Below, piece after piece: positions 692 through 23,236 of a DNA stretch of 64,000 bases. This DNA is from Alphaproteobacteria bacterium (lineage in GTDB: Bacteria; Pseudomonadota; Alphaproteobacteria; RF32; CAG-239). Location of the stretch: NCBI GenBank assembly GCA_045578445.1, contig JAZNKG010000011.1:46633-110632 (forward strand), written 5' to 3'. Within the stretch, counting starts at the first letter, position 1; the number at the start of each line of letters is the position of its first letter. The notes under the pieces are model-generated. The model worked only from the letters and a program-made list of their open reading frames with translations, had not been told where the DNA came from and made no database searches. Made by a program: the position numbers and the translations under genes.

Positions 692-2050
692 TTATTTATC
701 AATATCTAAAGATATCCATTTACCTTTTGTTTCTTTATATTTAGCATCTGCATCATATAAATCAACATTTAATTTTAAATCTTTTGCGGTAAGTTTACCC
801 ATTGACTGTAATAGATTCAATCCTGATACATAGTAATCGTGTCTAGTTGTAACTTCTTCAACCTCAGAATTTAACAAATATTGATATTGATTTAATACAT
901 CTAGAACTGTTCTATTACCAAGAGCCTCTTCTTCTCTAACGCCATCTAATGCAACTTGATATGCTTTTATTTGTGCTTTAACAGAGCTTATTTTTGCTTT
1001 ATTTGCACTCAAGTATTCCCAATAACTTGTGATATTTGATTGAAGCATATCTTGTACATTGAGCAAATTTTCTTGTGCTTGCCAACGGTAGTATTTGCTT
1101 TGACGAATCTTTGCTCTGCTTGAACCTGCATTATATATAGGCATGCTAAAATTAACACCCAATTCCACAGAGTTTGTTGTTGGGTTTTTATCATACATCC
1201 AATTTTCATTTTTCATACGTCCTGCAGTTGCATAAGCATTTACAGAAGGTAATAAATCTCCTTTTGTTGTGCTAACATCATATTTTTTTGCTTTTAAATT
1301 ATGTTGTGCCGCATGTAATGAATAGTTATGCTCTTTAGCATAATTTAGTGCTTCTTCTAAACTTGTTGGAAATAATTTTTCAATATCCTTAGGGTCTTTA
1401 ATTTCTTTTGCATCTTCACCAATAACTTTTTTATAAACAGCTCTTGAGGCTTCTAAATTTCCCTCTGCTGAAATACGTTGAGATTGCGCAGATGCATAGC
1501 TTGCTTCTGCTTGTGACACATCGGTTGTTGTTGTTTCACCAACATTAAATCTTTCTTTTGTTTCTTCTAATTCTTTTTTTAGCAATTTTTCATTATTTTT
1601 TTGTAATTTAACAATAGCCTCATCGCGCAAAACGTTCAAATATGCAACAGCTGCCTCTAATATTACATTTTGTTCTGTTGCCATTAGAGCTGCTTTAGAT
1701 GCTTTTCTATAGCTTTTGGCAGAACTTACAGAATTTATAGTTTTGAAACCATTAAATATTGGTTGACTTACTGTTGCAGTTAATGTCCTACTATATCCAT
1801 CAACTGGCTTTCCTGGTTGATTCGTATTTATTTTAGAATCAGAATAACCACCGTCTACTCTTAGGGTTGGTCTATATCCAGATTTTGCAATTGCAACATT
1901 TTCATCAATCGCCTGAGCTTCGGCTCTTGCTGCTTTTAATGATGGATTGTATTCATAAGCTTTTGCTAAAGCCGTTTCTAAAGTATCTGCTTTTGCTATA
2001 CTTGTTAGCGACAACAAACAAGCAATAGACATAACTATTTGTTTTTTCAT
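692..2050 (-). CDS. tolC: TolC-family outer membrane efflux/secretion channel
   Basis: The 452-aa protein has a signal peptide (MKKQIVMSIACLLSLTSIAKA) and the two-repeat coiled-coil/beta-barrel architecture with the typical TolC N-terminal motif LETALAKAYEYNPSLKAARAE. Confidence 0.85.
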   Translation of the reverse strand: MKKQIVMSIACLLSLTSIAKADTLETALAKAYEYNPSLKAARAEAQAIDENVAIAKSGYRPTLRVDGGYSDSKINTNQPGKPVDGYSRTLTATVSQPIFNGFKTINSVSSAKSYRKASKAALMATEQNVILEAAVAYLNVLRDEAIVKLQKNNEKLLKKELEETKERFNVGETTTTDVSQAEASYASAQSQRISAEGNLEASRAVYKKVIGEDAKEIKDPKDIEKLFPTSLEEALNYAKEHNYSLHAAQHNLKAKKYDVSTTKGDLLPSVNAYATAGRMKNENWMYDKNPTTNSVELGVNFSMPIYNAGSSRAKIRQSKYYRWQAQENLLNVQDMLQSNITSYWEYLSANKAKISSVKAQIKAYQVALDGVREEEALGNRTVLDVLNQYQYLLNSEVEEVTTRHDYYVSGLNLLQSMGKLTAKDLKLNVDLYDADAKYKETKGKWISLDIDK

Positions 2051-2198: not shown

Positions 2199-4715
2199 GT
2201 GAATAGTGAAGTATGTTTATTATGTATGGGAGGTTGCGCTTTGAAAAAAGGTAAACTTGAAATCAATGATGAAATTAAGAGAGCTCACTTAAAACTTTCT
2301 ATTGAGCATTATATTAAATATTTTATCGGTAAGAGAGCTTGCGAATTAACTAAAGAAGAAGCATTGTATGCAATATCTTTAGCTGTGCGTGAATTCGCTA
2401 TGGATGAAATGTATAGCACAATTGCTCGCTATAATGAAAATTCATCAAAAAGAGTTTATTATTTATCAATTGAGTACTTAATTGGTCGCTCTCTGGAAAA
2501 TAATTTGCATAACTTAGGTCTTTTTGATTTGTTGAAAGATATCAAAATTGATGGATTTCCTGATATATCTTTGGAAGAAATTTTTGATACAGAATATGAC
2601 CCAGCTCTTGGAAATGGTGGTTTAGGAAGACTTGCTGCGTGCTATCTTGATTCTATGGCTTCTTTAGGTTTACCAGGTTTTGGCTATGGTATTAATTATC
2701 AATTTGGTTTATTCAAACAAAAATTTGAAAATGGATGGCAAGTAGAACAAGCAGATAACTGGTTTTCTGACTTTTCTCCATGGGAACTACCAAGACCAGA
2801 AAGAACTGTTACAATACCAATGTTTGGTAATGTAGAAACATATAGAGATGCAAGTGGAAAAGACACTTATGTATGGACAAATACTCATACATTATACGGT
2901 GTTCCATATGACTTTCCAATTGTGGGATATGATGGCAAATCTGTAAACTATTTACGCTTATTCTCAGCAAAAACAGATGATGAGTTTGATATAGACATCT
3001 TTAATAATGGTGGATATATTGAGGCTGTTGAAGATAAAATCAAGACAGAATCTATTTCCAAAGTGTTATATCCTTCTGATGCTATCGAATCGGGTAAAGC
3101 TTTAAGACTATCTCAACAATATTTCTTTGTTTCTTGTGCTATTCAAGATATTTTCAGAAGATTTTTAGAAAAAAGTAATGATTTTGTAAAATTGCCTGAT
3201 TCAGTATGTATTCAATTAAATGATACACACCCGGCTCTTGCTATTGCAGAAATGATGAGATTATTAATTGATGTGTATGGCCAAGAATGGGATGATGCGT
3301 GGAATATTGTTACTAGAACTTTTGCATATACAAACCACACATTATTACCTGAAGCTTTGGAAACATGGCCTTCTAAATATTTTGCTCATATGTTACCAAG
3401 ACATTTGCAAATTATTTATGAAATCAATCGTCGCTTCATGGAATTTGCGAGAGAAAAATTTGGTGAAAATCATGAAAAATTAGCAAAAGTATCTATTGTA
3501 TCTGGAGAAGGTGACCATCAAATCATCAGAATGGCCAATCTATCAATTGTTGGTTCTTTTTCTGTTAATGGCGTGGCAAAAATTCACTCTGAATTGATTA
3601 AAACATCTTTAGTTCCAGAATTTTATGAGTTATGGCCAGAAAAATTTACCAATATTACAAATGGTATTACTCCTCGTCGTTGGTTACTACATGCTAATAC
3701 CAACCTCGCAACTTTAATTTCTGATAAAATAGGAAAAGATTGGATTGTTAATTTAGACTTATTAGAAAAAATTTCTGATTTTGCAGAAGATGAAGAGTTT
3801 GTGAAGAAGTTTACGAAAATAAAAAAACAAAATAAAGAGCTTTTACGACATGAAATATTCAAACGTACCAATGTTGCTTTAACGACAAATAGCATGTTTG
3901 TGGTTCAAGCAAAACGTATTCATGAATATAAAAGACAACTTATGGCTATTTTGCAAGTGATTGGCGATTATCTTGCTATTGTTAGAGATAATGTTCGTCC
4001 TATTTGCCCTAAGACATATATCTTTGCTGGTAAGGCGGCTCCGTCTTATACATTTGCAAAACTTGTTATAAAATTAATTAACAATGTTGCTAATGTTGTA
4101 AATAATGACTCTAGAGTGGGTGATGCCCTTAAGGTTGTATTTATACCTGATTACAAGGTTTCTGTTGCAGAAGTATTAATTCCTGCTGCAGATGTTAGCT
4201 TACAAATATCTACAGCCGGATTTGAAGCATCTGGTACAGGTAATATGAAATTTGCACTAAACGGCGCTTTGACTGTTGGTACATATGATGGTGCTAATAT
4301 TGAGATTAGAGAAGCTGTAGGTGAAGATAATTTCTTCTTGTTTGGTCTCAAAGAAAATGAAATTCAAGATATGAGACCTAATTACAACCCTAGAAAAATT
4401 TATGAAGAATCTGAATATATTAAACGCATTTTAAATGCTATTAATTCTAATTTATTCTGTGAAAAAGATTCTCCAACATTATTTAAACCTATTTTTGATG
4501 AGATGTTAAACAGAGATTATTTCTTTGTTCTAGCTGATTTGGAAGCTTTTAATAACGCGATGCGTGAAGCAGAAAAAGCTTATAATAACAAACAAGAATG
4601 GGCTAAAAAAGCTATTTACAATGTAGCAAAAGTTGGTTATTTTTCTAGCGATAGAGCAATTTCAGAATATGCTAAAAAAATCTGGAATATATCAGCTCCA
4701 AAGAAGAAAAAATAA
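2199..4715 (+). CDS. glgP: Glycogen/maltodextrin phosphorylase (GT35 family)
   Basis: The 838-aa ORF carries the pyridoxal-phosphate site motif EASGTGNMKFALNGALTVGTYDGANIE and is conserved along its whole length with alpha-glucan phosphorylases. The start may be the ATG at 2199 or the in-frame ATG 27 nt downstream. Confidence 0.9.
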   Translation: MNSEVCLLCMGGCALKKGKLEINDEIKRAHLKLSIEHYIKYFIGKRACELTKEEALYAISLAVREFAMDEMYSTIARYNENSSKRVYYLSIEYLIGRSLENNLHNLGLFDLLKDIKIDGFPDISLEEIFDTEYDPALGNGGLGRLAACYLDSMASLGLPGFGYGINYQFGLFKQKFENGWQVEQADNWFSDFSPWELPRPERTVTIPMFGNVETYRDASGKDTYVWTNTHTLYGVPYDFPIVGYDGKSVNYLRLFSAKTDDEFDIDIFNNGGYIEAVEDKIKTESISKVLYPSDAIESGKALRLSQQYFFVSCAIQDIFRRFLEKSNDFVKLPDSVCIQLNDTHPALAIAEMMRLLIDVYGQEWDDAWNIVTRTFAYTNHTLLPEALETWPSKYFAHMLPRHLQIIYEINRRFMEFAREKFGENHEKLAKVSIVSGEGDHQIIRMANLSIVGSFSVNGVAKIHSELIKTSLVPEFYELWPEKFTNITNGITPRRWLLHANTNLATLISDKIGKDWIVNLDLLEKISDFAEDEEFVKKFTKIKKQNKELLRHEIFKRTNVALTTNSMFVVQAKRIHEYKRQLMAILQVIGDYLAIVRDNVRPICPKTYIFAGKAAPSYTFAKLVIKLINNVANVVNNDSRVGDALKVVFIPDYKVSVAEVLIPAADVSLQISTAGFEASGTGNMKFALNGALTVGTYDGANIEIREAVGEDNFFLFGLKENEIQDMRPNYNPRKIYEESEYIKRILNAINSNLFCEKDSPTLFKPIFDEMLNRDYFFVLADLEAFNNAMREAEKAYNNKQEWAKKAIYNVAKVGYFSSDRAISEYAKKIWNISAPKKKK

Positions 4716-7062: not shown

Positions 7063-7095
7063 AAAGGCTCTAGGAAACTAGAGCCTTTGAGTTTT
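7063..7095. terminator. Bidirectional terminator between fbaA (+) and the ABC exporter (-)
   Basis: An AGGCTCTAG-gaaa-CTAGAGCCT hairpin is flanked by an A-run and a T-rich tract. Confidence 0.6.
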
Positions 7096-9041
7096 TAAGC
7101 TATTTTTGAAAATAGTTTTTGTTTACTGATAATATCTTGTTTGGTTAGGCAAGCTTTAATAAACGGAGAATTTTGTACCAATTCCAAAGGTGTTCCATCG
7201 TTCTCTATCTGACCATTCTTTATAACAATAACCCTATCAGCCAAAGCAATCTCTGTCGGATTATGAGTTACAAGTAATACTGTTTTGTTTTTTGCTTTTT
7301 CTTTTAAGGTATTCATAACCTTAAAGCTTAGCACTTGGTCTAGACCAGTTGTTGGCTCATCTAATATCATTATTGGTCGGTCTGTTAAGAAAATGCGAGC
7401 TAATGCTAATCTTTGACGCTGACCGCCAGATAATGCGCGTCCTTGCTGCCCTACTCTATGATACAAACCATCTTTGAAGCGAGAAATATCTTCAATTAAG
7501 CCTGCAGAATCGAGAGCTTTTTTTACTTCTTCATCTGTTGCTTGTTCGTTAAAATATTTTAAGTTATATAATAAAGTATTATCAAAGAATTGAACTCTTT
7601 GTTCAATAAACGCAATTTGCTTATTTATAACATCATCACTTAAATCTGTTATATCCTTATCACCCAACTTTATAGAACCAGAATTTAAGTCATAATCATG
7701 GCGGATTAAACTCAATAACGTAGATTTACCTTGCCCCGATGCCCCAACTATAGCAGTTATTCCACCTTTCTTTATTTTAGTCGAAATACCATTGATAACA
7801 ATCGCACCTCGTTCTATTTTCTCTTCGCCAAACATTGTAATATCTTTTATTTTAGGATAAGAAAACTCTGCATTATTAATAGTTATGGTATCGTCTATTC
7901 TTTGTAATATATCGTTACCTATTTTACGCTCTAATGCTTTGGGAAGTTCTAATTTTTTCTCTAAATCAACTATTTTATTTCTATTTGAAGATATTTGAGT
8001 ATAGCTTTTTGATAAATCCTCAAAATTAAATCTAAATTGACCTGTAGCAGAGGATATTAAAGCAAATCTACCTATATCTTTTGTGTTTATAATATCATAA
8101 ATAATAAAATAAACAATTATTGCCGTAGATAAAAAATTTACCACACCTTGCAAGGTGAACTCATTTCTAAGATCTATAAATCTTATTTTATTATAAATAC
8201 CCTCAATGTATTTACCACGATAAAATATTCTTCCACTCTCTTTTTCTGATGATAAAGCCTCTTGCACAAGTGGAGAATTTAATAAGATATCATTATCTCT
8301 TTTTGAAATATGGGAACTTAATACAGATGCTTTGTAAAAGTTTTTTCTTTTAATATCTTCTATATACAACATACTTTCTACATTAAAAATAGCTACAACA
8401 AGAAAAAGAAAAAACAAATATGGTGATACGCACATAACACTAACGGTACAAGCAATAATGGCGACAACCCCATGCAACAAACGGTAAAATGACGATAAAT
8501 TATTTAATTTTAGCTCTCTTATTTCTCGCATAAAACTAAATAAAGTCATATGGCTATTTATTACAAAGAAAGATCTTGGTTTTGATAATATTTCTTTATA
8601 TTCAACAGTTCTACTGTATCTTTTATATAAATCTTTCAACTTACTAGAGTTAAACGTTTCAAATTTACGCAAAACCGCACTTGTATTATCTTGAACAAAT
8701 CTCAAAACCATAAAAAATATAAATGTTAGTATTCCAATTTTTGATCCCGTTACAAGTTCGGGTAGCGAACCATATAAAAGCATATTTGTAAAAGGATACA
8801 ATCCATAAAGTATAGCTATCACAATATTAATGAAGATAATTTTATGATATATATTCTTACAATTCTTATTCATACTTTTATATGTTTGATAAACTAGCGT
8901 ATATAGGCTTATCTCATTAGAATCGTTATTTTTTACGCCAAAAATAAAGTTTTTTAGTTGCTTTATACGTCTTTTTTCAAACACCCAAAAACTAATAACT
9001 TTATTTTTTTGATTTAAATCAGATGTTGTTATATCTGCCAT
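7095..9041 (-). CDS. Fused ABC exporter (N-terminal 6-TM permease plus C-terminal ATPase), paralog B
   Basis: The 648-aa protein has Walker A GASGQGKST, signature LSGGQRQRLALAR, Walker B ILDEPTTGLD and H-loop LVTHN. A roughly 55-aa N-terminal cytoplasmic extension precedes the TMD, and there is no C39 peptidase domain. Confidence 0.85.
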   Translation of the reverse strand: MADITTSDLNQKNKVISFWVFEKRRIKQLKNFIFGVKNNDSNEISLYTLVYQTYKSMNKNCKNIYHKIIFINIVIAILYGLYPFTNMLLYGSLPELVTGSKIGILTFIFFMVLRFVQDNTSAVLRKFETFNSSKLKDLYKRYSRTVEYKEILSKPRSFFVINSHMTLFSFMREIRELKLNNLSSFYRLLHGVVAIIACTVSVMCVSPYLFFLFLVVAIFNVESMLYIEDIKRKNFYKASVLSSHISKRDNDILLNSPLVQEALSSEKESGRIFYRGKYIEGIYNKIRFIDLRNEFTLQGVVNFLSTAIIVYFIIYDIINTKDIGRFALISSATGQFRFNFEDLSKSYTQISSNRNKIVDLEKKLELPKALERKIGNDILQRIDDTITINNAEFSYPKIKDITMFGEEKIERGAIVINGISTKIKKGGITAIVGASGQGKSTLLSLIRHDYDLNSGSIKLGDKDITDLSDDVINKQIAFIEQRVQFFDNTLLYNLKYFNEQATDEEVKKALDSAGLIEDISRFKDGLYHRVGQQGRALSGGQRQRLALARIFLTDRPIMILDEPTTGLDQVLSFKVMNTLKEKAKNKTVLLVTHNPTEIALADRVIVIKNGQIENDGTPLELVQNSPFIKACLTKQDIISKQKLFSKIA

Positions 9042-9282: not shown

Positions 9283-11235
9283 TTAAGCAATTTTAGAAAA
9301 TAGTTTTTGTTTACTCAAAATATCTTGCTTGGTTAAGCTTGATTTTAAGAAAGGAGATGTTTCTATTAAATCAAGTGGAGCACCATCGCTTTCTATTTGA
9401 CCATCTTTTATAACAATTACCCTATCAGCAAGAGCTATTTCTGTTGGATTATGTGTTACAAGCAATACCGTTTTATTTTTAGCTTTTTCTTTTAAGGTTT
9501 TCATTACCTTGAAGCTTAACACTTGGTCTAACCCTGTTGTTGGCTCATCTAATATCATTATTGGACGGTCCGTTAAGAATATACGAGCTAAAGCCAAGCG
9601 TTGGCGCTGACCACCAGATAGGGCCCTACCATCTTGTCCAATTCTGTGATATACACCATCTTTTAGATTTAATATATCCTCTGTTAAGCCAGCAGAATCT
9701 AAAGCTTTTTGCAGTTCTTCTTCTGATGCGTTTTCTTTGAAGTATTTTAAGTTATACAACAATGTTTGATCAAAGAAGTGAACGTTTTGATCAACAAATG
9801 CTATTTGTTTGTTTATCTCGTTATCGGAAAGAGCGGTTAGAGTTTTTGTACCAAGTTTTATTGAGCCTGATGTCAGGTCATAATCGTGGCGTATTAGACT
9901 CATTAGAGTTGTTTTACCCTCACCTGATGTACCGGCAACAACGGTTATCTCTCCTGGATTTATTGTGGTTGTGATGCCTTTTATAACCTCGTTTCCACGT
10001 TCAATCGTTTCTTTTTCAGCGCCTAGCGTGGTTACATCTTTGATTTTCGGATAAGAAAAGCGAATGTCTTTTATGTTTATAGTATTATCTTCTGGTGTTA
10101 GCTTTTTAGAACCGGTTTTACGCTCTAATGCATGTGGGGTTATAAGTTGCTTTTGTGTATCTACAATCTCATTGCGATTATCTAATAGATATCTTTTATA
10201 CCAAAGAATTAATTGATAACTACGCCATCTAAATACTGATGTAGCACTATAAATCAAAGCCAATCTACCTATATCTTTTGAAACAATAATCTCGTGCAAA
10301 GCTATTGTTGCGATAAAAAAAGCAATCACCGCAGATACGATAAATGAAGAAATATTCTCCATTTTATAATCTGCAAAAAGAAGCTTTAGAGATGCTTTGG
10401 TATCTTTTTTCATTCTTTGTCTCATACAAATTTGTTCATTAGATATATTTAATGCATCTTGTACAAGTGCAGAATTTGCCATTATATCTCTATTTGTTTG
10501 TCTTACTTTTATCTTTATTAGTCTTTTTTTATTTTCTCTATTTCGCAATAAATATGATGCGTATCCGCTAAACTCTGCATATATTAAGCAAGCGACTACT
10601 ATCACAAAAAATAATTTAGATGAAACAATAAAAACACTAATCCCTGTTATACATAAAACAACAATTCCTCTTAGTTCATCTAATACATCACTCAATAGTT
10701 CCACTTTATTGTTTGTTATTTTTTCTACCATGTCATTCAAAGATGACGGTGAATTAACTTTAAAAAATGGACGTGGCTTGCGTATGATATCTGCAAAACC
10801 CTTAGTTTGTTCTGCCTCATTGTATTTGTATTTTATCACATCTCTATAACAATACCTTAAATTATTAAAAACAGGTTCAATCATTTTAGCTGCATTTAAT
10901 AATACCCAATATAGCAAAAATGTTGTTATTGCTTTTGGAGTATTATCTAATATTGCAGGCAATGAGCCATATACTAACATTTCAAAATAAGGGATTAACC
11001 CTTCTAGCATAGCTGATGCAATCCCTATAGCTATCATAAGGTATAAATTCTTCTTACAAATAGAATCCATTTCTTTATAGATATTAAAAGATAGAACAAA
11101 GGGATTTATATTGTTTTGAGATTTTATCTTGTAACCTTGGATAAATTCATAAAATTTTTTAATCTTTTGCTTTTCATAAGCAAAAAAACTTAAAGGTCGC
11201 TCAAACGAGTGAGCCAACTTATTATTATCAGTCAT
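9283..11235 (-). CDS. Fused ABC exporter (permease plus ATPase), paralog A
   Basis: The 650-aa protein has Walker A GTSGEGKTT and the canonical signature, Walker B and H-loop motifs. The last ~115 aa are almost identical to paralog B and both end in KQKLFSKIA. Confidence 0.85.
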   Translation of the reverse strand: MTDNNKLAHSFERPLSFFAYEKQKIKKFYEFIQGYKIKSQNNINPFVLSFNIYKEMDSICKKNLYLMIAIGIASAMLEGLIPYFEMLVYGSLPAILDNTPKAITTFLLYWVLLNAAKMIEPVFNNLRYCYRDVIKYKYNEAEQTKGFADIIRKPRPFFKVNSPSSLNDMVEKITNNKVELLSDVLDELRGIVVLCITGISVFIVSSKLFFVIVVACLIYAEFSGYASYLLRNRENKKRLIKIKVRQTNRDIMANSALVQDALNISNEQICMRQRMKKDTKASLKLLFADYKMENISSFIVSAVIAFFIATIALHEIIVSKDIGRLALIYSATSVFRWRSYQLILWYKRYLLDNRNEIVDTQKQLITPHALERKTGSKKLTPEDNTINIKDIRFSYPKIKDVTTLGAEKETIERGNEVIKGITTTINPGEITVVAGTSGEGKTTLMSLIRHDYDLTSGSIKLGTKTLTALSDNEINKQIAFVDQNVHFFDQTLLYNLKYFKENASEEELQKALDSAGLTEDILNLKDGVYHRIGQDGRALSGGQRQRLALARIFLTDRPIMILDEPTTGLDQVLSFKVMKTLKEKAKNKTVLLVTHNPTEIALADRVIVIKDGQIESDGAPLDLIETSPFLKSSLTKQDILSKQKLFSKIA

Positions 11236-11414
11236 AGATTAAATTTCCTTCTTAAATTATGTTAAAACAAATAAACTGTATTTGCCTGTTTTTAGGCTTA
11301 TAATTTAAGAAATTAAAAATATTTGATGTTTAATATAATAAATCATTTGTGTCCTTTTGTTTTTAATAAGGGAGAATAAGGTTTCTCCCTTATTGTTTTA
11401 TTATTATATTTAAA

Positions 11415-12842
11415 TTATTTCAAGCTTTCTATTAAAACCACTGGGTTAATGATTGTGCCAACGTCTTCTTTGAAGGTACCGGTTTTTAACCCTAATTCAA
11501 AAAACTCATAAGGTGTTATAGTTTCTTTTACGCTTTTTGCTAGTAGGTAAAGGCTAGATGCGAATACTTTCGCATATGGTCCAGCACAATGCTCAAAAGC
11601 ATATTCATCCATTTTCACACCTAGGGCAACAGTTTTGGCTCCACATGGAAAACAAAGTGAATTTGCAAATAACTCTTTTTTTGAACTTGGTACTTTATGA
11701 AGCGGTGAGTATTCTATTAACACATAATCATTTGGATTATCTAAATCGCCATCAAGTTTACAATAAACCCGCTCTTCTCTTAAAATTTTATTTTGTGTAA
11801 ATTTATTATAGTCATTACACCAAATTCCAAGTTGTTCTGCATCTTTTTTCGCTTTTACAGTCTCCTCATAACCTTCATCATTTTGAAACACCTCTGAAGT
11901 TAACGCTCCTTGAATATGAATAACATCAATACCGTTCTTTCCTTCTGATATAAGTTTCTTATGCAACTCACAAACTTTTTTTATTGCTTCAGCATAATTT
12001 ACTTGTGAACCTCTTGGATTTTCCTTTGTGCGCTGTTCATCAACTGCGTAGTAATATGCATTCGCATGAGGAGCTATTCCGCATGTCTTTCCAACAAATG
12101 CTGAAACAAAACCAACATTCGAACCTCCGCCGTAGTTTGTCGCATCAATACCAATTTCTTCATATCCTTTTAATGAGTTGTGATATTCCATATGATTAAA
12201 AAGGCGTTGCCAATCAATAATTGCTATGTTTCTTCCATTACCTTTTATGCCTTGCTTGTGAAGAGTTTTAATACCCAACCCTGGGTTTTTGCGAGCTTCT
12301 AAAAACTCTTTTGGATTAAAACCAGCTGGAAGCATTGATTTATCTTCTGGCCATTTAGTATCTTCTGAATAGCGAACAAATATAGGATTCAAACCAGATA
12401 AATCATATTCTGAAAGATCTAAATGTTCAAAAGATTTATATTCACCACGACCACCAGCGCTTGTTGGTGTTTTTGGGAAAAAGGTTTTCTTTTTAGAATC
12501 ATATTCTAATTTATAGTCTTCTGGTTTGTTTAACTGAAATATCTTTTGCTCATATCCGGTTGTAATGCGTCCACCATGCCATAATTTGAATGGATTTTTC
12601 AGTGTTTTGTTTTTAGTAACAATTAAAGCTTCTGCTAATTTATGTGATTCTTGTTTAATTAAATCATTCCAACTATCAAAGCCATATTCTTTGGCAATAA
12701 CATGCTGAGCATTCATTAATGATAATTCACTTTTACCACTAAAATACTTTTCACATCTTGATTTTGCTTCTGGGAGATTTTTCTTAAAGTCTTTTAAGAG
12801 ACATTTTGCTTCCACTTGGAAGTATTCAATATACTTTGTCAT
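11415..12842 (-). CDS. Hypothetical 475-aa protein with a subtilase (S8)-like C-terminal domain lacking the catalytic His; no signal peptide
   Basis: LHKQGIKGNGRNIAIIDWQ aligns with the subtilisin Asp block LHSQGYTGSNVKVAVIDSG, and GIAPHANAYYYAV aligns with GVAPSASLYAVKV. The HGTH position reads YGGGSN and the GTSMA Ser position reads EHCAGP (His lost, Ser possibly replaced by Cys). The N-terminus is hydrophilic. Confidence 0.5.
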   Translation of the reverse strand: MTKYIEYFQVEAKCLLKDFKKNLPEAKSRCEKYFSGKSELSLMNAQHVIAKEYGFDSWNDLIKQESHKLAEALIVTKNKTLKNPFKLWHGGRITTGYEQKIFQLNKPEDYKLEYDSKKKTFFPKTPTSAGGRGEYKSFEHLDLSEYDLSGLNPIFVRYSEDTKWPEDKSMLPAGFNPKEFLEARKNPGLGIKTLHKQGIKGNGRNIAIIDWQRLFNHMEYHNSLKGYEEIGIDATNYGGGSNVGFVSAFVGKTCGIAPHANAYYYAVDEQRTKENPRGSQVNYAEAIKKVCELHKKLISEGKNGIDVIHIQGALTSEVFQNDEGYEETVKAKKDAEQLGIWCNDYNKFTQNKILREERVYCKLDGDLDNPNDYVLIEYSPLHKVPSSKKELFANSLCFPCGAKTVALGVKMDEYAFEHCAGPYAKVFASSLYLLAKSVKETITPYEFFELGLKTGTFKEDVGTIINPVVLIESLK

Positions 12843-13025
12843 ATCTTATTCCTTTCTAAATAACCTATCCTAACGCCTGTCCGATTAGCATTGATAAGCT
12901 ACTTAAAAGAAATCTATGTAATAAAATCATCATGGCAATGTTTCACTTTGGCGGACATACCGAGCGCTTGCCTCACTCATAATGTTTCTTATATCGCAAA
13001 AATGTCCTTATGTCAATAATCTTTT

Positions 13026-13060
13026 TATAAAAAAATAGCCACCTAATTTTAGATGGCTAT
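13026..13060 (-). terminator. Rho-independent terminator after infC
   Basis: Minus-strand RNA UAGCCAUCUAA-aau-UAGGUGGCUA is followed by UUUUUUU. Confidence 0.55.
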
Positions 13061-13083
13061 TATTATTGCTTTTAGTGGTAAAT

Positions 13084-13635
13084 TTATGCAGGAGATACAA
13101 TCATATATACTTGCTTACCTTCTGCTTTAGGAGCAGCGTCTACTTTGCATAAGCCCTCTAAATCTTCTATCAATTTATTCAAAATTTCTTTACCCATATC
13201 GTTGGCAGACATTTCTCTACCTTTGTAACGCATAGTAAATTTAACTTTATCACCTTGGCTTAAGAATTTTTTAGCTTGTTTGAGCTTTACTTCATAGTCA
13301 TGAGCTTCAATCATTGGACGGAGTTTTAACTCTTTTATACTAACTACTTTTTGATTTTTCTTAGCTTCGTTTTTCTTTTTCTGCATTTCATACTTGTACT
13401 TACCATAGTCAAGCACTTTACATACAGGAGGTGTTACTTGTGGAGATATTTCTATTAAATCCAGCCCAACTTCTTGAGCAATACTTAGCGCTTCTGAAAT
13501 AGAAACAACCCCTAAATTTTCTCCATTATAATTAATTAAACGAACTTCTTTTGCTTTAATTTCTCTATTTATGCGTGGTCCGTCAGCTTCACGTACTGGC
13601 GCATTATTATTTTCCGTAGCTATTTTTGCCTCCAA
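13084..13635 (-). CDS. infC: Translation initiation factor IF-3
   Basis: The 183-aa protein is conserved along its whole length with IF-3 N- and C-domains (…INREIKAKEVRLINYNGENLGVVSISEALSIAQEVGLDLIEISPQVTPPVCKVLDYGKYKYE…). Confidence 0.9.
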   Translation of the reverse strand: MEAKIATENNNAPVREADGPRINREIKAKEVRLINYNGENLGVVSISEALSIAQEVGLDLIEISPQVTPPVCKVLDYGKYKYEMQKKKNEAKKNQKVVSIKELKLRPMIEAHDYEVKLKQAKKFLSQGDKVKFTMRYKGREMSANDMGKEILNKLIEDLEGLCKVDAAPKAEGKQVYMIVSPA

Positions 13636-13705: not shown

Positions 13706-14554
13706 TTATATCGCAAAAGTATGCTTTTTTTGATAGATTAAAGCTAGGTCAAAACTATAAATATTTGTGTTGTAATAATTTGAATGAGCGAATGTTATTT
13801 CTGCTGTTTTTTTATCAAATTCTACACCAATAAATCCTTTTTTTATCATAGTATCAATTAGTTCAAATCTATCATAAGGAAGTGTTATTCTTGTTTTTAT
13901 ATCAGATAAAACACTTGATTTTCCCATTGGTTTATGAAGAAGAGAAATTTTTCCGCCATCAGAGGGGTCTATAGAGGTCTGAAATAAATTAAAGCGACAA
14001 GCAAAATATGGTGTCATATTCCAACGATTGTTTCTATCTACAATTGACGCACAATCTGTACAATTTAATAATGACGCCTGTTCCATACGATAGTTAATCA
14101 TTGCTGTATTAATAGCATTACCTCTATATGATGGATGAACTGAATCTGCACCAAATGTTGCTATACGAGAATTTGCATTTCTCCTTTTATCAAAAAAATT
14201 ATATTCGCAGTTTGGCAACTCTTCCTGTAAATCTTCGTTATTTTCGCAAATTTTGATATAAGACATCCCTATGAGCTCTTTTCCAACAAAAGCTCCTATA
14301 TAACGAATGTTTCTGTTTTTAAAAACACTGTTATAATATTCTTTAGAGTGTTTATGAATAAAACATTCTTGTCCTTCAGAAAGATTTGCATAGATGGTTT
14401 CTGAAAGTTTACCCATTGCTTCAGCGTCTTTTATATTTAGAGGTCTGATATGATAATGTATAGGTTTATCAAGTTTAATACCGTCAACTTTGTTAATGTT
14501 GCCCAACCAAACCATTTCTCCATTTACTTGATATTTTTTTAATTCTGTACTCAT
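13706..14554 (-). CDS. GNAT-family N-acetyltransferase domain protein with an extra C-terminal region
   Basis: GNAT motif A (VHPSYRGNAINTAMINYRMEQA) is present. The start is set at the ATG (MSTELKK) preceded by a GAGGA RBS; the longer TTG-initiated ORF would translate through a terminator hairpin. Confidence 0.55.
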   Translation of the reverse strand: MSTELKKYQVNGEMVWLGNINKVDGIKLDKPIHYHIRPLNIKDAEAMGKLSETIYANLSEGQECFIHKHSKEYYNSVFKNRNIRYIGAFVGKELIGMSYIKICENNEDLQEELPNCEYNFFDKRRNANSRIATFGADSVHPSYRGNAINTAMINYRMEQASLLNCTDCASIVDRNNRWNMTPYFACRFNLFQTSIDPSDGGKISLLHKPMGKSSVLSDIKTRITLPYDRFELIDTMIKKGFIGVEFDKKTAEITFAHSNYYNTNIYSFDLALIYQKKHTFAI

Positions 14555-14579
14555 TTTTTCCTCTAAACAATTAAACAAT

Positions 14580-14768
14580 AAAAAAAGCGGGAACAATTCC
14601 CGCTTTAAACACTTTTGTGAAGATAAATTATCTGCAACACAAAACTAACGGCGGGAACATATTTTCCTGACGTTTTATCTTGAATTGCTTTATAGTTAAA
14701 TTACCTAACATTTCATCCTCATTAAAAAAGTTGAAGGTATTATGCATTATTTTATGGTAACTTGTCAA
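14580..14768 (-). promoter_or_regulatory. Candidate transcription-attenuation leader upstream of the GNAT gene
   Basis: On the minus strand a TTGACA-N18-CATAAT promoter (plus-strand 14739-14768) is followed by a ~125-nt leader ending in a GCGGGAA-caa-UUCCCGC-U7 terminator only ~25 nt before the GNAT RBS. The leader holds a second UUCCCGC copy inside a 27-codon ORF (MLGNLTIKQFKIKRQENMFPPLVLCCR). Confidence 0.35.
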
Positions 14769-14793: not shown

Positions 14794-17659
<2,866 letters not shown>

Positions 17660-19841
17660 AATCTATTCCTAACTTAGATAGAATATCTTCATTTTGTGAA
17701 GTTCTTTGAGCTACAATCCAATCTGGCACCCATGCTGAATGTGGTATTTTAGACATTGCCAACATTTTTTTATCTAAATAAAAACGAGGGGCATCTGCCA
17801 TAATTGGTGTTTCAATATGACCTTGCATCAATACAACTTGTTTTAACATTGGTAAACTTAGCAAGTCATTTGACTTAATAGCTGCAACACCTGTTAATTG
17901 ATAACTTACATTCTTTGCAAATGGGTTAAATTCTTTATTTAAGCTACCCTCTTGTCTAGAATAAGATGTTGTTTGGATTGTCTTTTGACCAATCATTTTT
18001 GAGAAACGTTCTGCAGTTTGTTCGTTATTCTGTGAAAGAATAACTTTACAAGCTGTTGTAGAAATAACTGTTTCAAGGTCATCTTTACCATATTTACCAG
18101 AAATTTGACCTAAGTCTTGTCCAATTAGTAGATATGATACTTTTTGACCACGTCCCACCGCTGGTCCGTCAATTACCGCTTTAAGTTTTGGCATTTGAGG
18201 AAACTCGTCGAGCACAAACAATACTGGGAATGGCCCCATTTTACCATCTGTTGTGTTAACAAAGTTTGGTGGGTTAGAAATTAAATATGCACTCATCAAG
18301 TCAACGAACACTGCACTAATTGGGTTCAATGCTTGGGCATCTGTTTGGTTAACTGATAAGTATACTGCAATTGGTTTCCATTCGCCTGTTACAGGGTCTT
18401 TAAGACCGCGCATATCCTTAAACTTGATGTCAGAAAAACTAGTTCTTGCAACCACCGCAGAGTTTTTAAAGATACGAATACCGTTGAAAGCCATAGATAA
18501 CACAGAACCACGTTCTTTATCTGGTTTAGACCTTAGACCACTTAACTCTTGAATACAACGACGAGAATAACCATAGTCATTTGCCTCATTAATAGCTCCA
18601 TCAAGCAACTCACCCATAAGGTCAGCCATGGCTGCCATTTGGTCACCTTCTTCTTGACGGCGTTTTATCTCGTTACTTTGTTCGATTGTTGCTGTGGTAA
18701 TCCATTCTAGAATCATAGCCAAACAAGCTTCATGATTTACCCATCTATCTGGGAAAGAATTCCATGTACCAATAGGTAAGTAGTTTTCTATTGTTAAATT
18801 ATTACTTTGCAAATCTTGTAAAGCTCTAATTGCATTGTTTTGCAAATTACCACCTTGCATATCTTCATAATGACTCATAAGCTCTGCTTTATCTTCTTCC
18901 GTCATTGTTCCTTCAACAATTTTTTGAATAAAGCGCTCATTTGCTAAAGCTTTTTCGCATTTTGAAGCCACAAATTGAATAAGACCACACAAAGCTCCTC
19001 GACCTGCTTGTGACCAATATGCATCACCGCCACCTTTAGGATCTTCTACTAAAGTATTACACATTGAATCAATATACAAGTCACGTGCAGGACCTGGAGC
19101 AGGTAATGCCCCTGGAGATAATGGATTCCAGCTAGGATAATATTCACCAGTTAGTGGGTTATCCTCCTTACCCCAGTTGATTACAAAAACAGGTCCTACT
19201 TTACTTCTTGCTCCTGTTGTGGAATAACACAATTCAGGTTTAGGGTCATTTACAATAATACTCATTGTGTCTGAGTTAAAAATTGTAGGAATCACAACAC
19301 CGGCAGTTTTACCTGTACCTGGAGGAGCACAACACAGCGTTGATAATGTTTCTTTTAATTTTAACATTTTTCCTTGAAAACGCCCTACAACCATGCAAAA
19401 ACCATCAAAACCTAATAAAGGCATGCGCTCAATATCTCTTAATGTAGCAATATGTGCTGAACCATGAACATTTGATTGGAATTTATATGGACATTTTACA
19501 GCACCTGTTATTAATATTACAGGAAAAGATATAAATGGTAATAATGGCAACCATGAACTTAATTTTGTTGGAACTGATTGTGTAAAAATCCTTCTGAACC
19601 ATTTTGCATACTGATTATAAAGAGTCTCAGGATTAGAAATAGTTTTTTTGATAAAAAGACTAACTGTATCCATACTTTTTTTAGAAATACCTTGCTGTAT
19701 TAGGTATGCTAATGGATGTGCTAGATATAGCAATACGATACTAACACCTATTGAAATAAAGAAAGTCATTGTAATCCAACGTACCGCGTTGTCATACTCT
19801 TCCCATTCTTTTCCTCTTTCTTTTGCCATTTTACACCCCTA

Positions 19842-21170
19842 TTATGCCATACTTCTAAATAATTTTCTTAATTTTTCTAATGTTTCCTCGCCAACTTTAG
19901 CTTCGCAATTATCTACCACTTTAGAGAATAAACGTATTTCTTTTGGACTACCTCTATTTATACGAGTAACATTAATATTCATATCTTGCCAAATTTCAAA
20001 CATATCCTCTGCATTAATGATATTGCCAGATTGAACAATAACATGTGGAATTACATTAAATTTCATATCAGCCACAGAAAGCTTTGTTCGTAATGCATCG
20101 CAAACAATATCAATTTGTCTTACTGGAGATATTCTGTGACTACTTTCTGAGAACCATAGTGGCTCTTCATCATTGAATTTTTCTTCATCTGCCAACCAAT
20201 CTCCTATTTCTTTATCAACAAGACAAACAAGTAAGGTGTCTTTTGAAACAGCAATACAATCAACTTTAGTGCTTTTTATTATTGGAGAAGGAATAATATC
20301 ATACCCCTTTTGAGTTAGTACATCAATAACAGGGGTTTGCGATTCCCTAACAGCGGAAGTGTCTTGATTAGAATTACTGTCATTGTTGTTCTTTTCCTCT
20401 TTTTTAGGTTTATTATCTTTTCTATTGTTTCTATCATTGTTCTTATTGTGTTTTTCTTCTTTTTTAGCGTTATCAAAACGACTATCAAAATCACTAACCC
20501 CATCTTCAGGTATCAGACTTGATGGTGGTGCTGGCGGATTTTCAACAGACTTTGGCTTGTCTTTTTTATCAAAATCAAAGTCGAAATCAAAATCATCCTC
20601 ATCAAAATTAAATAAAGCATGGTTAATTGGAGCTTCTTGTTTCTTTTTATTTGGAGTATATGACGATGTTGGTCTAGGTGAGGATATAGTAGATGTTGGA
20701 GTCTGTTTAGTGTATATATTTGATTGCATTAATGTTGCTGACGGCAAAGGCTGAGGCTTAACAGCTGTTTTTTTGATAACAGGTGTATTTTTAATTACAG
20801 GAGTTTCCTCTTTTACAGCTTTTTTCTTAATAACAACTGTAGGTTTTGTTTTTAAGGTTAATTTTCTGTATAAATATAAAGGACTATAGAATAGATGTTT
20901 GAAAAATCTATTCCATTTAACCAAGCATAAGCCTATCCACCCTGCAAATAATAACGGTACACTACTTAATACAATCAAAAAGAATCCAAACTCTGATGCG
21001 GTAATAGGCTCTCCGCTATTCCATTTTTCTCCCAATAAAATCCAATGTTCTTTAAGAAAAATATCAAAGTGCCAATTGATTAGTAAAACCACCCTTAACC
21101 CATCTATGAATACTATACTCCATAGATAGCCAACTAATAAAGTTTTTAATATTATAGTTAGTGGTTTCAA
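19842..21170 (-). CDS. Membrane-anchored hypothetical protein with a low-complexity linker and a C-terminal globular domain
   Basis: The 442-aa protein has 2-3 N-terminal TM helices, then KKTAVK / VIKNTPVIK repeats, an FDFDFDFDFD run and a K/N-rich tract, then a ~150-aa domain (…VDCIAVSKDTLLVCLVDKEIGDW…). Its stop lies 12 nt from the virD4 start. Confidence 0.55.
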   Translation of the reverse strand: MKPLTIILKTLLVGYLWSIVFIDGLRVVLLINWHFDIFLKEHWILLGEKWNSGEPITASEFGFFLIVLSSVPLLFAGWIGLCLVKWNRFFKHLFYSPLYLYRKLTLKTKPTVVIKKKAVKEETPVIKNTPVIKKTAVKPQPLPSATLMQSNIYTKQTPTSTISSPRPTSSYTPNKKKQEAPINHALFNFDEDDFDFDFDFDKKDKPKSVENPPAPPSSLIPEDGVSDFDSRFDNAKKEEKHNKNNDRNNRKDNKPKKEEKNNNDSNSNQDTSAVRESQTPVIDVLTQKGYDIIPSPIIKSTKVDCIAVSKDTLLVCLVDKEIGDWLADEEKFNDEEPLWFSESSHRISPVRQIDIVCDALRTKLSVADMKFNVIPHVIVQSGNIINAEDMFEIWQDMNINVTRINRGSPKEIRLFSKVVDNCEAKVGEETLEKLRKLFRSMA

Positions 21171-21727: not shown

Positions 21728-23236
21728 CTATACTCTTCCAGCCATATAGTCATATATAAATCGCGAACTATTGCAGACATTTGGTGATTGTCTAGTGGCT
21801 GTTGCAACATTACAAATTGGTCTTCCATCAAATTCAAAATTATCAACACACATTATTGCTTCTTGTAATTTTCTTCTATTTTTTTCTTTTGTTTTTATAT
21901 TGCTTCGTGCGTCTTTATCTGCATTTGATGCAATTTCTGATACAGACAATATCGCATTATTAATATGTTCGCAATAATTTTTTATACTTTCATTTCTTTT
22001 GTTTACATCTGTACCACAATTTTCGTAAATTTTATCAATATTTAGCATGATTTCATTCATATATTGTGAAGCAGTTGTAATAATTTTATATTCTTTGTAT
22101 TTACCATTCTTTTCATCATTGCTTGTATTTTCATTTATTTCTTTTATACAAGCTTTAATTGCATCTTTATCTGATTCAGAAGCTTTTTGTTTTATCATAG
22201 TCAAACTTGCTCTAATATCGTTAAATGTTTCGTCTGCAGGAAGAATATTTACAAGCTCATCTGCATATGTCTCTACATCGGCATAATTTATTCGCCCTGA
22301 AGACTTTTTCATTTCTTTCTGCAATTCCTTATATTTTTCATTAAATCCTTCAGGCATAAAGTCTACATTTTCATCTGATAGCACTTTTAGAGCTGATAAC
22401 CTATAAGAAAAACTAGCAATCATTTTGGCTTTTTTGCATAAATTTTCTACTATTTTAGGTGTTTTTTGAAAATTTTTATAGGCATTTGCCTCTGGAGCAT
22501 CTGGATTCGCTTGAAAAGCTTCATATGATGGAACAAGAACATCTGTTGTATATCTTCTTATCTCATCTAAAGCTTCAGGACAAATTGTCGCAATATTACT
22601 CCAAGATGGTGTCTCGCCTGAGCGTATTAAAAGTATGTTTCTCTCAACTTCATCTTTAGCTTTTTTAGAGTTTTTCTCTATTTCATCAACTTTTTTACAA
22701 ACATCTTTTCTCTTGTTTTCAGCCATGTCTAGATAACTTTTACCAAGCGGTGCTTTTTCACCTTGCTCTGGTTTTGAATACAATACCCAAGTCATAAAAT
22801 CTAAAGGTATATCAACCATTTTATCAATACACCATCCATAAAACTCCAATATCATACCCCAGAAAACAGCCATGATATCTTTTTCTTTGAATTCATCTTT
22901 GCCTTTTTTACTGCGTTCAGGTGGTGTAGATTCTTTTCCTTTAGGTTTTTCTACTTTTGAATGAAGCTCTGTTGGATTAACTCCGTATGCGGAGCTAATT
23001 CCTGCAGCTACATTATCTGCATCATGCTCTGGAGGAATTGGAGGAGTAGGAGGAGTAGGAGGAGTAGGCGGAGTTGGAGGCGTATTATCACCTTCTGTTT
23101 CCTGTGATGCATCATCACCACCAGAACTATTATCGCCATCTAAATTGTCAGCAGAATCATCGAGCAAGAAATTCTCTGTTTCTTGTTTAACTTCATCCTC
23201 AAATTCTTTTTTTTCATTATTTTCGTCTACGCTCAT
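21728..23236 (-). CDS. Hypothetical 502-aa protein with an acidic N-terminus and a (PTP)n repeat; no signal peptide
   Basis: The N-terminal 60 aa are D/E/S-rich, followed by TPPTPPTPPTPPTPPIPP and then a globular Cys-containing region. No recognisable motif. Confidence 0.55.
   Translation of the reverse strand: MSVDENNEKKEFEDEVKQETENFLLDDSADNLDGDNSSGGDDASQETEGDNTPPTPPTPPTPPTPPIPPEHDADNVAAGISSAYGVNPTELHSKVEKPKGKESTPPERSKKGKDEFKEKDIMAVFWGMILEFYGWCIDKMVDIPLDFMTWVLYSKPEQGEKAPLGKSYLDMAENKRKDVCKKVDEIEKNSKKAKDEVERNILLIRSGETPSWSNIATICPEALDEIRRYTTDVLVPSYEAFQANPDAPEANAYKNFQKTPKIVENLCKKAKMIASFSYRLSALKVLSDENVDFMPEGFNEKYKELQKEMKKSSGRINYADVETYADELVNILPADETFNDIRASLTMIKQKASESDKDAIKACIKEINENTSNDEKNGKYKEYKIITTASQYMNEIMLNIDKIYENCGTDVNKRNESIKNYCEHINNAILSVSEIASNADKDARSNIKTKEKNRRKLQEAIMCVDNFEFDGRPICNVATATRQSPNVCNSSRFIYDYMAGRV
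23031..23084. repeat. 9-nt tandem repeat (GGAGGAGTA x3 perfect plus flanking degenerate copies) encoding the PTPPTPP tract
   Basis: Direct reading of the plus strand gives ggaggaatt ggaggagta ggaggagta ggaggagta ggcggagtt ggaggcg. Confidence 0.8.

Follow-up and report, generated by a model that had tools for sequence, protein, structure and literature searches.

A probable subtilase-derived pseudo-enzyme family of gut Alphaproteobacteria with a five-helix N-terminal domain and recurrent acetyltransferase and ABC exporter neighbors

The subject of this work is a gene on the minus strand of a 64,000-nucleotide stretch of contig JAZNKG010000011.1 (GenBank assembly GCA_045578445.1, Alphaproteobacteria bacterium), which is referred to as the window. 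The gene, at 11415..12842, is a complete open reading frame (ORF) of 475 amino acids plus stop with an ATG start, as supported by the ORF list, at least 88 full-length homologues and an AlphaFold2 (AF2) model. Its product, termed the pseudo-subtilase, is a genuine homologue of the S8 peptidases, the relation being far beyond chance, and it is very probably a pseudo-enzyme, that is, an S8 non-peptidase homologue. It carries a conserved five-helix N-terminal domain, lacks an export signal and, within its own lineage, is recurrently found next to a small GNAT N-acetyltransferase and a specific clade of ABC exporters. The original prediction, made by a model from the sequence alone, had placed a signal-peptide-less subtilase-like protein at this position, and the location was upheld, with the strand, length and ATG start given above. 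The start codon is considered right because the N-terminal residues M1, Y4, F8 and K13 are invariant across the family.

Homology to S8 peptidases

Searched on its own, the pseudo-subtilase hits neither Pfam nor NCBIfam nor the PDB sequences at cut-offs as loose as E<=1 or E<=10, and PF00082 is likewise not reached at E<=1. A homology search with the protein returned 465 relatives, and 1,182 were found in an exhaustive search of 1.84 billion representatives. About 88 sequences (at least 88) are full-length family members sharing 37 to 92% identity, none of them with a Pfam domain. Relatives from approximately 35% identity downward align to residues ~139 to 475 and carry PF00082; in a direct scan, those at 31 to 35% identity (E ~1e-30) exceeded the gathering threshold of this model, with 43 to 54 bits versus a cut-off of 21.8.

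The AF2 model, built from an 83-sequence alignment, has a predicted local distance difference test score (pLDDT) of 94.6 and a predicted template modeling score (pTM) of 0.93. When this model was compared with the PDB using Foldseek, the top 50 matches were all S8 peptidases (E 3.5e-7 to 1e-5, probability 1.0), including PagA, intracellular subtilisin, BPN', Carlsberg, S1P and MycP1. Profile comparisons gave the same answer: the hhalign profile-sequence alignment of the family with subtilisin BPN' has a probability of 95.7% and an E value of 8.8e-9, and the family profile detected Tk-SP at E 2.6e-13 in the set of PDB sequences. In the hhalign alignment, the Asp block of the query, LHKQGIKGNGRNIAIIDW, pairs with ALHSQGYTGSNVKVAVIDS of BPN', GIAPHANAYY pairs with GVAPSASLYA, and IDVIHIQGAL pairs with MDVINMSLGG. 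The block-by-block assignment to S8 that had been made by eye is thereby corroborated for the Asp, GxAPxAxxY and IDVIxxxxG blocks, and the structure prediction that had been proposed as its check returned the S8 fold.

Loss of the catalytic triad

The state of the triad was counted in 54 family members and 29 active-type (triad-bearing) relatives. The codon of D210 (12213..12215, minus strand) corresponds to catalytic Asp32; Asp is kept in the query, in 35 of the 54 family members and in all 29 relatives. The column of catalytic His64 is occupied by S241 (codon at 12120..12122, minus strand), which lies within YGGGSN, and His is found there in 29/29 relatives but in 0/54 family members, so that the predicted absence of the catalytic His is confirmed. 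The column of catalytic Ser221 is occupied by P422 (codon at 11577..11579, minus strand), with Ser in 5 of the 54 family members and 26 of the 29 relatives. Among 49 genes that were translated from genome loci as a second, independent set, His occurs once and Ser six times, and the lone His-bearing gene is without both Asp and Ser. The Asp-His-Ser order of an active S8 peptidase is thus broken in the query at S241 and P422, and proper alignment, suggested earlier as a way to find an intact triad, revealed none. Together with the predicted S8 fold, this triad loss bears out the earlier reading of the protein as a pseudo-peptidase, which we now hold with high confidence.

The substitutions extend beyond the triad. 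The positions that are invariant in the relatives and relaxed in the family are M240/H241, V245, the S309/S311 strand and G420, as well as the Ser column and P426, and they coincide exactly with the active-site elements, namely, the M-H-G block, V245, the I-S-I-S strand, G420 and the G-G-x-S-W-x-x-P block. S309 and S311 are part of the I-S-I-S strand, the counterpart of the BPN' Ser125 strand that pairs with the substrate backbone. As read from these alignments, the pattern points to an ancestor that was inactivated, with the former active site drifting thereafter, and not to a switch of nucleophile. The family-specific invariant residues H294, C361, D306 and D372 map outside the cleft according to the BPN' alignment and the BPN' structure; R184 and R204 are further invariant residues specific to the family.

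Domain architecture and evolutionary origin

Four regions can be distinguished in the pseudo-subtilase. Residues 1 to 80 (12603..12842, minus strand) form a five-helix domain, as recognized from the AF2 helices, its conservation and 699 homologues. This N-domain is followed by a poorly conserved linker with small beta elements (residues 81 to 138; 12429..12602, minus strand; entropy 2.29); the lowest pLDDT values of the model, 74 to 81, are found around residues 121 to 140. Residues 139 to 190 (12273..12428, minus strand; entropy 1.19) constitute a conserved pre-S8 extension that is common to the triad-intact relatives and features the motifs D-x-S-x-Y-D-L-S ... T-x-W-P ... P-x-G-F-N-P ... R-K-N-P-G-L-G; its residues W164, G188 and L189 are invariant both in the family and in the triad-intact relatives. 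The degenerate S8 body, identified by Foldseek, hhalign and the profile comparison with the PDB, comprises residues 191 to 475 (11418..12272, minus strand). The original prediction had seen no recognizable domain in the N-terminal ~200 residues, which is correct as far as curated libraries are concerned but does not hold for residues 1 to 80 and 139 to 190, which are the conserved five-helix domain and the conserved extension, respectively.

The N-domain is the best-conserved part of the protein, with a mean column entropy of 1.15 versus 1.66 for the S8 body. It contains 20 family-specific near-invariant residues, including those of the motif L-S-L-M-x-x-Q-H-V-I-A-K-E-Y-G-F-x-x-W. Modeled alone it reaches a pLDDT of 78, versus ~90 to 97 inside the full protein; this increase, along with the pTM of 0.93, suggests that in the model the N-domain packs against the S8 body. 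Foldseek returned no PDB structure that matches its fold (best E 4.3). A single-sequence search with the N-domain retrieved merely 11 short fragments, but an alignment-based profile search gave the 699 homologues, which are stand-alone proteins of ~130 to 155 amino acids, all of them "hypothetical" and none with a Pfam domain. They originate from Lachnospiraceae, Butyrivibrio, Flavobacterium, Sediminibacterium, Gammaproteobacteria, Legionella and Schwartzia.

Several of the corresponding loci were inspected (genome loci are designated by L numbers and individual relatives by P numbers). The stand-alone gene of Legionella steelei lies beside an AbiEi/AbiEii pair plus a DUF4917 gene, that of Flavobacterium magnum CP028811 (L057, 5001-5453) is part of an array of unannotated genes for 140 to 190 amino acids, with a transposase and a Kinase-PolyVal gene, and another, on a metagenome contig, is located among SNIPE and PLD nuclease genes; further stand-alone loci are L050 (6004-6417), L058 and L059. 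These genes are orphans in variable regions or accessory islands that resemble immunity-gene or defense islands. PADLOC and PHROGs contained no match for the pseudo-subtilase or for one stand-alone N-domain homologue.

The pseudo-subtilase shows no hydrophobic N-terminus, signal peptide or transmembrane segment in Kyte-Doolittle 15-residue means: the maximum is 0.21 in the first 60 amino acids, as the predicted lack of a signal peptide had implied, and 1.48 in the whole protein. It is accordingly predicted to be a cytoplasmic protein. Most triad-bearing relatives start instead with lipoprotein-type signals (L-T-G-C, L-A-S-C, L-S-G-C, L-A-G-C) or signal anchors. The S8 body would thus stem from a clade in which most of the S8 peptidases are lipoproteins or secreted, and the five-helix domain would have taken the place of the N-terminal export signal of this clade. 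The presence of stand-alone N-domain proteins in variable regions argues for the family being a fusion of a mobile helical module to a degenerate, internalized subtilase, as far as can be judged from sequence comparison.

The triad-bearing sister clade has features of its own. P0128, P0130 and P0131 contain two S8 copies in tandem, and the stretch before their T-x-W-P motif is pentapeptide-repeat-like (D-L-R-G-x-D-L-S-G-L-D-L). In P0130, copy 1 is without Asp, His and Ser (IIAG, VEG, GGWNW) and copy 2 without Ser (GARAW), and catalysis has therefore been lost more than once in the sister clade. The closest triad-intact relatives, P0091 and P0102, have no signal peptide, at least one of them stems from an Alphaproteobacteria metagenome-assembled genome (MAG), and both possess Lys/Arg-rich C-terminal tails of ~40 to 60 residues that are not present in the pseudo-enzymes. 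A toxin-immunity relation, in which a dead paralog would neutralize an active signal-less S8 protein, was considered and discarded, as the P0102 and P0091 genes are not adjacent to pseudo-S8 genes.

Distribution and gene neighborhood

A scan of 185,579 species-representative genomes identified 42 loci, all of them in MAGs of uncultured Alphaproteobacteria from gut or rumen. The sources are human, water buffalo, roe deer and rumen samples, and the MAGs are labeled Alphaproteobacteria bacterium, Acetobacter sp., Rhodospirillales or Rickettsiales. The window is assigned to this group by its low G+C content (~30%) and its synteny with L001 and L004. Approximately 11 genomes encode two family paralogs. 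Two lineages are distinguished: that of the query, with 32 genes (43% identity or more), and a second paralog lineage with 17 genes.

The tandem ABC exporters that the original prediction had noted directly downstream are indeed present on the same strand. Half-transporter 1 (9283..11235, minus strand; 650 amino acids) falls in the ABC clade found repeatedly beside the family and is the probable functional partner of the pseudo-subtilase; half-transporter 2 (7095..9041, minus strand; 648 amino acids) is its paralog, with 51% identity. Each is an ABCB-type half-transporter whose Walker A, Q-loop, signature, Walker B and H-loop motifs are all canonical. The membrane domain is divergent, the N-terminus is extended by ~60 amino acids, and no C39 or C39-like domain was found in either protein. 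The identity between them is uneven, with 9 to 22 of 50 positions per block in the membrane domain and 49 of 50 in alignment columns 551 to 600 of the nucleotide-binding domain (NBD), which suggests a recent gene conversion between the 3' halves of the two paralogs.

Within the query's lineage, a GNAT gene is adjacent in 20 of the 32 cases, an ABC gene of the specific clade is located within 4 kb in 23, and at least one of the two is present in 27. The linked GNAT is orthologous among loci, has 158 to 160 amino acids and is usually encoded 50 to 60 bp downstream on the same strand; it is a generic small RimI/AAC/PaiA-like N-acetyltransferase that scores below every NCBIfam equivalog cut-off. 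Members of the specific ABC clade score 448 to 1,408 bits against the ABC proteins of the window, compared with ~130 bits for unrelated ABC exporters at the same loci. The commonest gene order is S8-GNAT-ABC; others are S8-ABC-ABC (window, L012), S8-ABC-S8-GNAT-ABC (L011), S8-S8-ABC (L016) and S8-GNAT-GNAT-ABC (L028). A metagenome search with the GNAT as the query returned 15 loci. Upstream sequence is available for 13 of them, and in each of these the gene directly before the GNAT is a pseudo-S8 gene; ~11 of the 13 represent a single species. Co-occurrence of the gene with the ABC pair, which had been proposed as a check, is thus partly upheld, for the specific ABC clade, but in general a single ABC gene, following the GNAT gene, is present rather than a pair, and the close orthologs L001 and L004 have no ABC genes. 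From the first few loci it had seemed that the ABC pair is not conserved beside the gene, a view that was overturned by the systematic scan of the 42 genome loci.

The genes upstream vary between loci and include infC, a Zeta-toxin kinase gene, a gene with a bPH_2 domain (L024-type loci) and a peptidyl-prolyl isomerase gene (L005), and the pseudo-S8 set therefore appears to move as a unit. The Zeta-toxin/PezT-type kinase (PF06414, E 3e-46) is encoded at 1147-2040 (plus strand) of L011, ~240 bp upstream of the pseudo-S8 gene and in the position of infC, and a same-sized gene (~298 amino acids) takes this position in L010 and L012. In the window, infC (13084-13635) is directly upstream. It is followed by a terminator-like hairpin (13034-13061, minus strand) and then by a promoter-like element, TTGACA-17 nt-TATAAG (12988..13016, minus strand), which was recognized from consensus matches only. 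The pseudo-subtilase gene thus appears to have its own expression signals. A further hairpin with a 13-bp stem (11364..11395) is located 20 nt past the stop codon. What comes after it on the coding (minus) strand is rich in A and contains no U-tract, and transcription may for that reason read through into the ABC genes.

Additional genes accompany parts of the family. A protein of 296 amino acids, encoded two genes upstream in the window (13706-14596, minus strand), is weakly GNAT-like (Acetyltransf_1 E 0.008; PHROG acetyltransferase E 2e-4). At the loci examined, a gene for ~282 to 296 amino acids in this position accompanies pseudo-S8 genes that have no small GNAT (window, L001/L009, L013, L014, L016), where it precedes a gene for 183 amino acids (infC in the window and L001); loci that have the small GNAT (L004, L010, L011) are without it. 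It is possible that this gene functionally replaces the small GNAT. Homology of the 296-residue protein to the small linked GNAT was evaluated with BLASTP and not accepted, since the best match (E 0.03 over 16 residues) is not significant. In one clade (L003, L022-L032, L038, L062-L072), with the ABC gene before or after, a 227-residue HD-domain protein and a helical protein of 531 to 537 residues without a Pfam domain are encoded beside pseudo-S8-GNAT-ABC, as at 10100-10783 and 10992-12605 of L024; they were not considered parts of the module, as they are restricted to this clade and absent from the window. Many genes of the second lineage follow a gene for ~155 to 160 amino acids, annotated as HSP20 in L006 and L007. 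L006 also encodes a 473-residue serpin (PF00079; 15375-16796, minus strand) ~6 kb from its second-lineage pseudo-S8 gene; serpins are uncommon in bacteria.

Proposed role and alternative explanations

A protease look-alike that has no cutting residues and is encoded next to GNAT and ABC genes probably binds rather than cuts. The pseudo-subtilase would act as a binding or adaptor subunit and not as an enzyme. In the query's lineage, it would be encoded by the first gene of a movable module, followed by a RimI/AAC-like GNAT and one or two ABCB-type exporters; its task would be to recognize or retain a ligand, either peptide-like or an amine, that undergoes N-acetylation and export by the pump, or, alternatively, to regulate the ABC pump. 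Such a non-catalytic partner of an acetylate-and-export module is the most likely role, at about even chances, and a functional coupling to the GNAT and ABC proteins is an equally balanced call. Ligand binding and the physical or functional coupling to both partners are inferred, and the specific adaptor mechanism must be placed below the coupling as such. In its most explicit form, this reading unites the dead S8 protein, the RimI-like GNAT and a dedicated ABCB-type exporter in a previously undescribed "bind, N-acetylate, export" system of three parts, in which the S8 protein would recognize the substrate or act as a gate. We regard this version as speculative and rather unlikely; if it were true, it would define a new class of soluble ABC-exporter accessory protein in which a protease fold has been reused and joined to a mobile five-helix domain, and the cargo would be a peptide-like signal, a toxin, or a host- or diet-derived compound.

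A number of observations weigh against a role in acetylation and export. The second paralog lineage has an adjacent GNAT in only 1 of its 17 genes and a specific-clade ABC within 4 kb in none. In L001, a 70% identical ortholog with the same synteny, the gene runs straight to fba with neither GNAT nor ABC genes in between; L009, also a close ortholog, is like L001 in having neither of them adjacent, and in L004, an 86% identical ortholog, a small GNAT is found in place of the ABC genes and there is no ABC. The window itself misses the small GNAT and has a duplicated exporter. Many of the linkage loci derive from related MAGs, so that the independent events are fewer than the raw counts. No candidate gene for a precursor peptide was found, as 11236-11414 contains no ORF of at least 20 amino acids and 12843-13083 none with a plausible context, and an Rfam scan of the 5' leader detected no riboswitch or other known RNA element at E<=1. 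The classical substrate-binding strand is itself degenerate, and peptide binding in the classical cleft is therefore not to be assumed.

The strongest alternative is a pseudo-peptidase whose role is independent of GNAT and ABC, with the N-domain serving as an interaction, regulatory, chaperone-like or immunity-type module and the gene adjacency reflecting shared residence in a variable genome region. It would account for the N-domain being the most conserved region and for its stand-alone occurrence in many phyla, where the genes are orphaned in islands with toxin-antitoxin, nuclease and transposase genes. It would also accommodate the Zeta-toxin gene directly upstream in L011, with the same-sized gene in L010 and L012, and the second paralog lineage and those close orthologs that have neither GNAT nor ABC neighbors. 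Shared residence is more difficult to reconcile with the 27 of 32 query-lineage genes that have retained the GNAT, the specific ABC clade or both although their flanking genes differ, with the GNAT beside the pseudo-S8 gene in every testable metagenome locus, and with the lack of a PADLOC or PHROGs match. We consider this alternative unlikely on balance, but worth serious attention.

The original prediction had raised the idea that the signal-less protein is itself the cargo of the ABC pair and the nearby TolC in a type-I-like manner. A TolC-like outer membrane efflux protein gene is indeed present at 692-2050 (minus strand), 5 kb from the ABC pair. The absence of a Sec signal, the ABC exporters immediately downstream, with a pairing that recurs in the lineage, and the NBDs, which score well against type I secretion ATPase models, yet far below the cut-offs, would also fit. 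However, no gene for an HlyD-type membrane-fusion protein (MFP) was found between infC and fba in the window, nor any MFP among the annotated neighbors of L001-L007 or the genes scanned in L011 and L024, and the ABC proteins lack a C39 or C39-like domain and possess just the ~60-residue N-terminal extension. The TolC gene of the window is separated from the ABC pair by glycogen phosphorylase, TerB-like and fba genes and is kept in L001, where the ABC pair is missing; since TolC genes are often unlinked, its position speaks neither for nor against such a system. Furthermore, the pseudo-subtilase has no RTX-type or Gly-rich nonapeptide repeats, its C-terminus N-P-x-x-L-I-E-x-L is the last helix of the S8 fold, conserved in the lipoprotein relatives, rather than a secretion signal added to it, and several orthologs have no ABC neighbor. 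With no MFP neighbor and a C-terminus that is a helix of the fold, type-I-like secretion is unsupported, and we judge it improbable.

Another route out of the cell would be type IV secretion through the nearby VirD4, with the dead protease acting as a decoy or binder in another cell. The VirD4/TraG-like gene (17610-19829, minus strand) is 5 kb away and syntenic in L001 and L004, the Sec signal is missing, and stand-alone N-domain homologues occur in Legionella. Against this, there is no C-terminal extension or charged tail past the S8 fold, many of the gene contexts have no VirD4 nearby, and the Legionella homologue is found in a toxin-antitoxin island with no recognizable effector context, making this route very improbable. 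As an observation in its own right, the VirD4/TraG gene is flanked by ORFs at 16871-17659, 19842-21170 and 21728-23236 (all minus strand) that have no Pfam domain and are in part low-complexity and rich in Pro, Asn and Lys. This block, with its synteny in L001 and L004, points to a type IV secretion system encoded on the chromosome of these gut Alphaproteobacteria.

A still weaker case can be made for a protein that is still an enzyme and in which Cys419 or a different Cys/His pair substitutes for the nucleophile. In the query and the sequences nearest to it, Cys419 (codon at 11586..11588, minus strand) is close to where the Ser used to be, and C254, C361 and H294 are invariant in the family. 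The original prediction had put a Cys in place of the nucleophile Ser and allowed for a Cys-based variant. This was not sustained: the Ser221 column holds Pro422, whereas Cys419 lies three residues upstream, pairs with Tyr217 of BPN' and is present in only 10 of the 54 members. The general-base His is absent from all 54 and Asp is lost in 19 of them. As for the other candidates, C254 also occurs in active relatives, C361 pairs with a buried core strand of BPN', and H294 is part of a helix extension that in the alignment lies past the BPN' 104-116 helix, away from the cleft in the BPN' structure. A replacement nucleophile is therefore highly improbable.

Finally, the notion of a decaying relic without function, which the missing catalytic residues and the split homologue L044 might invite, is effectively refuted by the conservation pattern, as the family is conserved over its full length down to 37% identity, maintains its paralog pairs, yields a very confident AF2 model and has many invariant residues, including 39 invariant columns that are concentrated in the N-domain. 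In L044, one family member is present as two adjacent ORFs (1901-2545 and 2552-3289), which is either a genuine pseudogene or an assembly frameshift.

Significance and comparison with known systems

Subtilase-derived pseudo-enzymes are already known as a kind; the novelty lies in the family as such, in the fusion of its domains, in its gene partnership and in a range confined to gut Alphaproteobacteria. Bacterial proteases known to have lost their activity and to have been kept as binders or sensors are few, the main S8 example being the Csp proteins of C. difficile, and the present family, which matches neither a Pfam nor an NCBIfam model, adds to the dead bacterial S8 proteins. It offers a clear evolutionary path from an exported, active peptidase to a cytoplasmic pseudo-enzyme, in which signal peptide and triad were lost and a helical domain was gained. 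It also reveals a large family of small stand-alone N-domain proteins, none of them annotated, and a recurrent partnership with a GNAT and one ABC clade in uncultured and poorly understood low-GC Alphaproteobacteria of gut and rumen. Should the coupling to the GNAT and the pump be real, it would represent a new kind of ABC-exporter accessory subunit and a handle on what these gut bacteria export; should it not, the pseudo-subtilase would be one more S8 non-peptidase homologue. A defense or phage origin was considered and set aside in view of the negative PADLOC and PHROGs results.

Among characterized proteins, the classical S8A subtilases (BPN'/Carlsberg, Tk-SP of Thermococcus kodakarensis and the Bacillus intracellular subtilisins) have the same fold (Foldseek probability 1.0), with a target-normalized template modeling score of ~0.5 to 0.6 in Foldseek and 12 to 17% identity to the solved structures. 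They share the alignable Asp block, the GxAPxAxLY block and the strand before the SLGG motif, and the Bacillus intracellular subtilisins also have no signal peptide. The pseudo-subtilase differs in its missing His and Ser, its relaxed Ser125-type strand and its 190-residue N-terminal addition of helical domain, linker and pre-S8 extension. Closer in sequence is the triad-intact sister clade (P0091-P0120 and ~1,000 more in metagenomes), with 31 to 35% identity over residues 139 to 475 and the common motifs T-x-W-P, P-x-G-F-D-P, K-N-P-G-L-G and VGKTCGVAP. Its members keep Asp, His and Ser, most of them have lipoprotein or signal-anchor N-termini, and they are without the N-terminal helical domain.

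Two known arrangements resemble the gene neighborhood. Class I lanthipeptide clusters combine LanP, a subtilisin-like leader peptidase that is signal-less in some cases, with the ABC exporter LanT, and some of them also hold an N-acetyltransferase. The likeness lies in an S8-fold gene beside an ABCB-type exporter of ~600 to 650 amino acids that has no peptidase domain. A lanthipeptide cluster or any other cluster for ribosomally synthesized and post-translationally modified peptides was nevertheless rejected, because the triad is lost and no LanB, LanC, LanM or precursor gene was found in the window or among the annotated or scanned neighbors. The second arrangement is the C39-like domain (CLD) of HlyB, a degenerate peptidase domain that binds the substrate of this ABC exporter, which works with an MFP and TolC. 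Here, too, a peptidase fold without its nucleophile has been kept with an ABC exporter as a binding or chaperoning element. The CLD belongs to the C39 cysteine peptidase clan and not to S8, it is fused to the transporter while the pseudo-subtilase is a separate protein, and no linked MFP was seen in the present case.

The closest parallel in terms of function is provided by CspA and CspC of C. difficile, subtilisin-like pseudoproteases that act as germinant sensors or regulators and sense small molecules (PMC7200643, PMC6636752). As in the present family, an S8 fold of gut bacteria has lost catalytic residues and has been kept for a nonproteolytic role. The family profile retrieved 56 PDB sequences at E<=0.01, and no Csp chain is among them; Tk-SP, intracellular serine proteases and subtilisins match best. 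The family differs further in its hosts, which are non-sporulating Alphaproteobacteria, in its context of GNAT and ABC genes instead of a cspBA-cspC locus, and in its N-terminal helical domain. On these sequence and context grounds, the pseudo-subtilase is not a member of the Csp clade; as an analogy in function, CspA and CspC nonetheless offer the best example of how a dead subtilase can sense a ligand or have a regulatory role.

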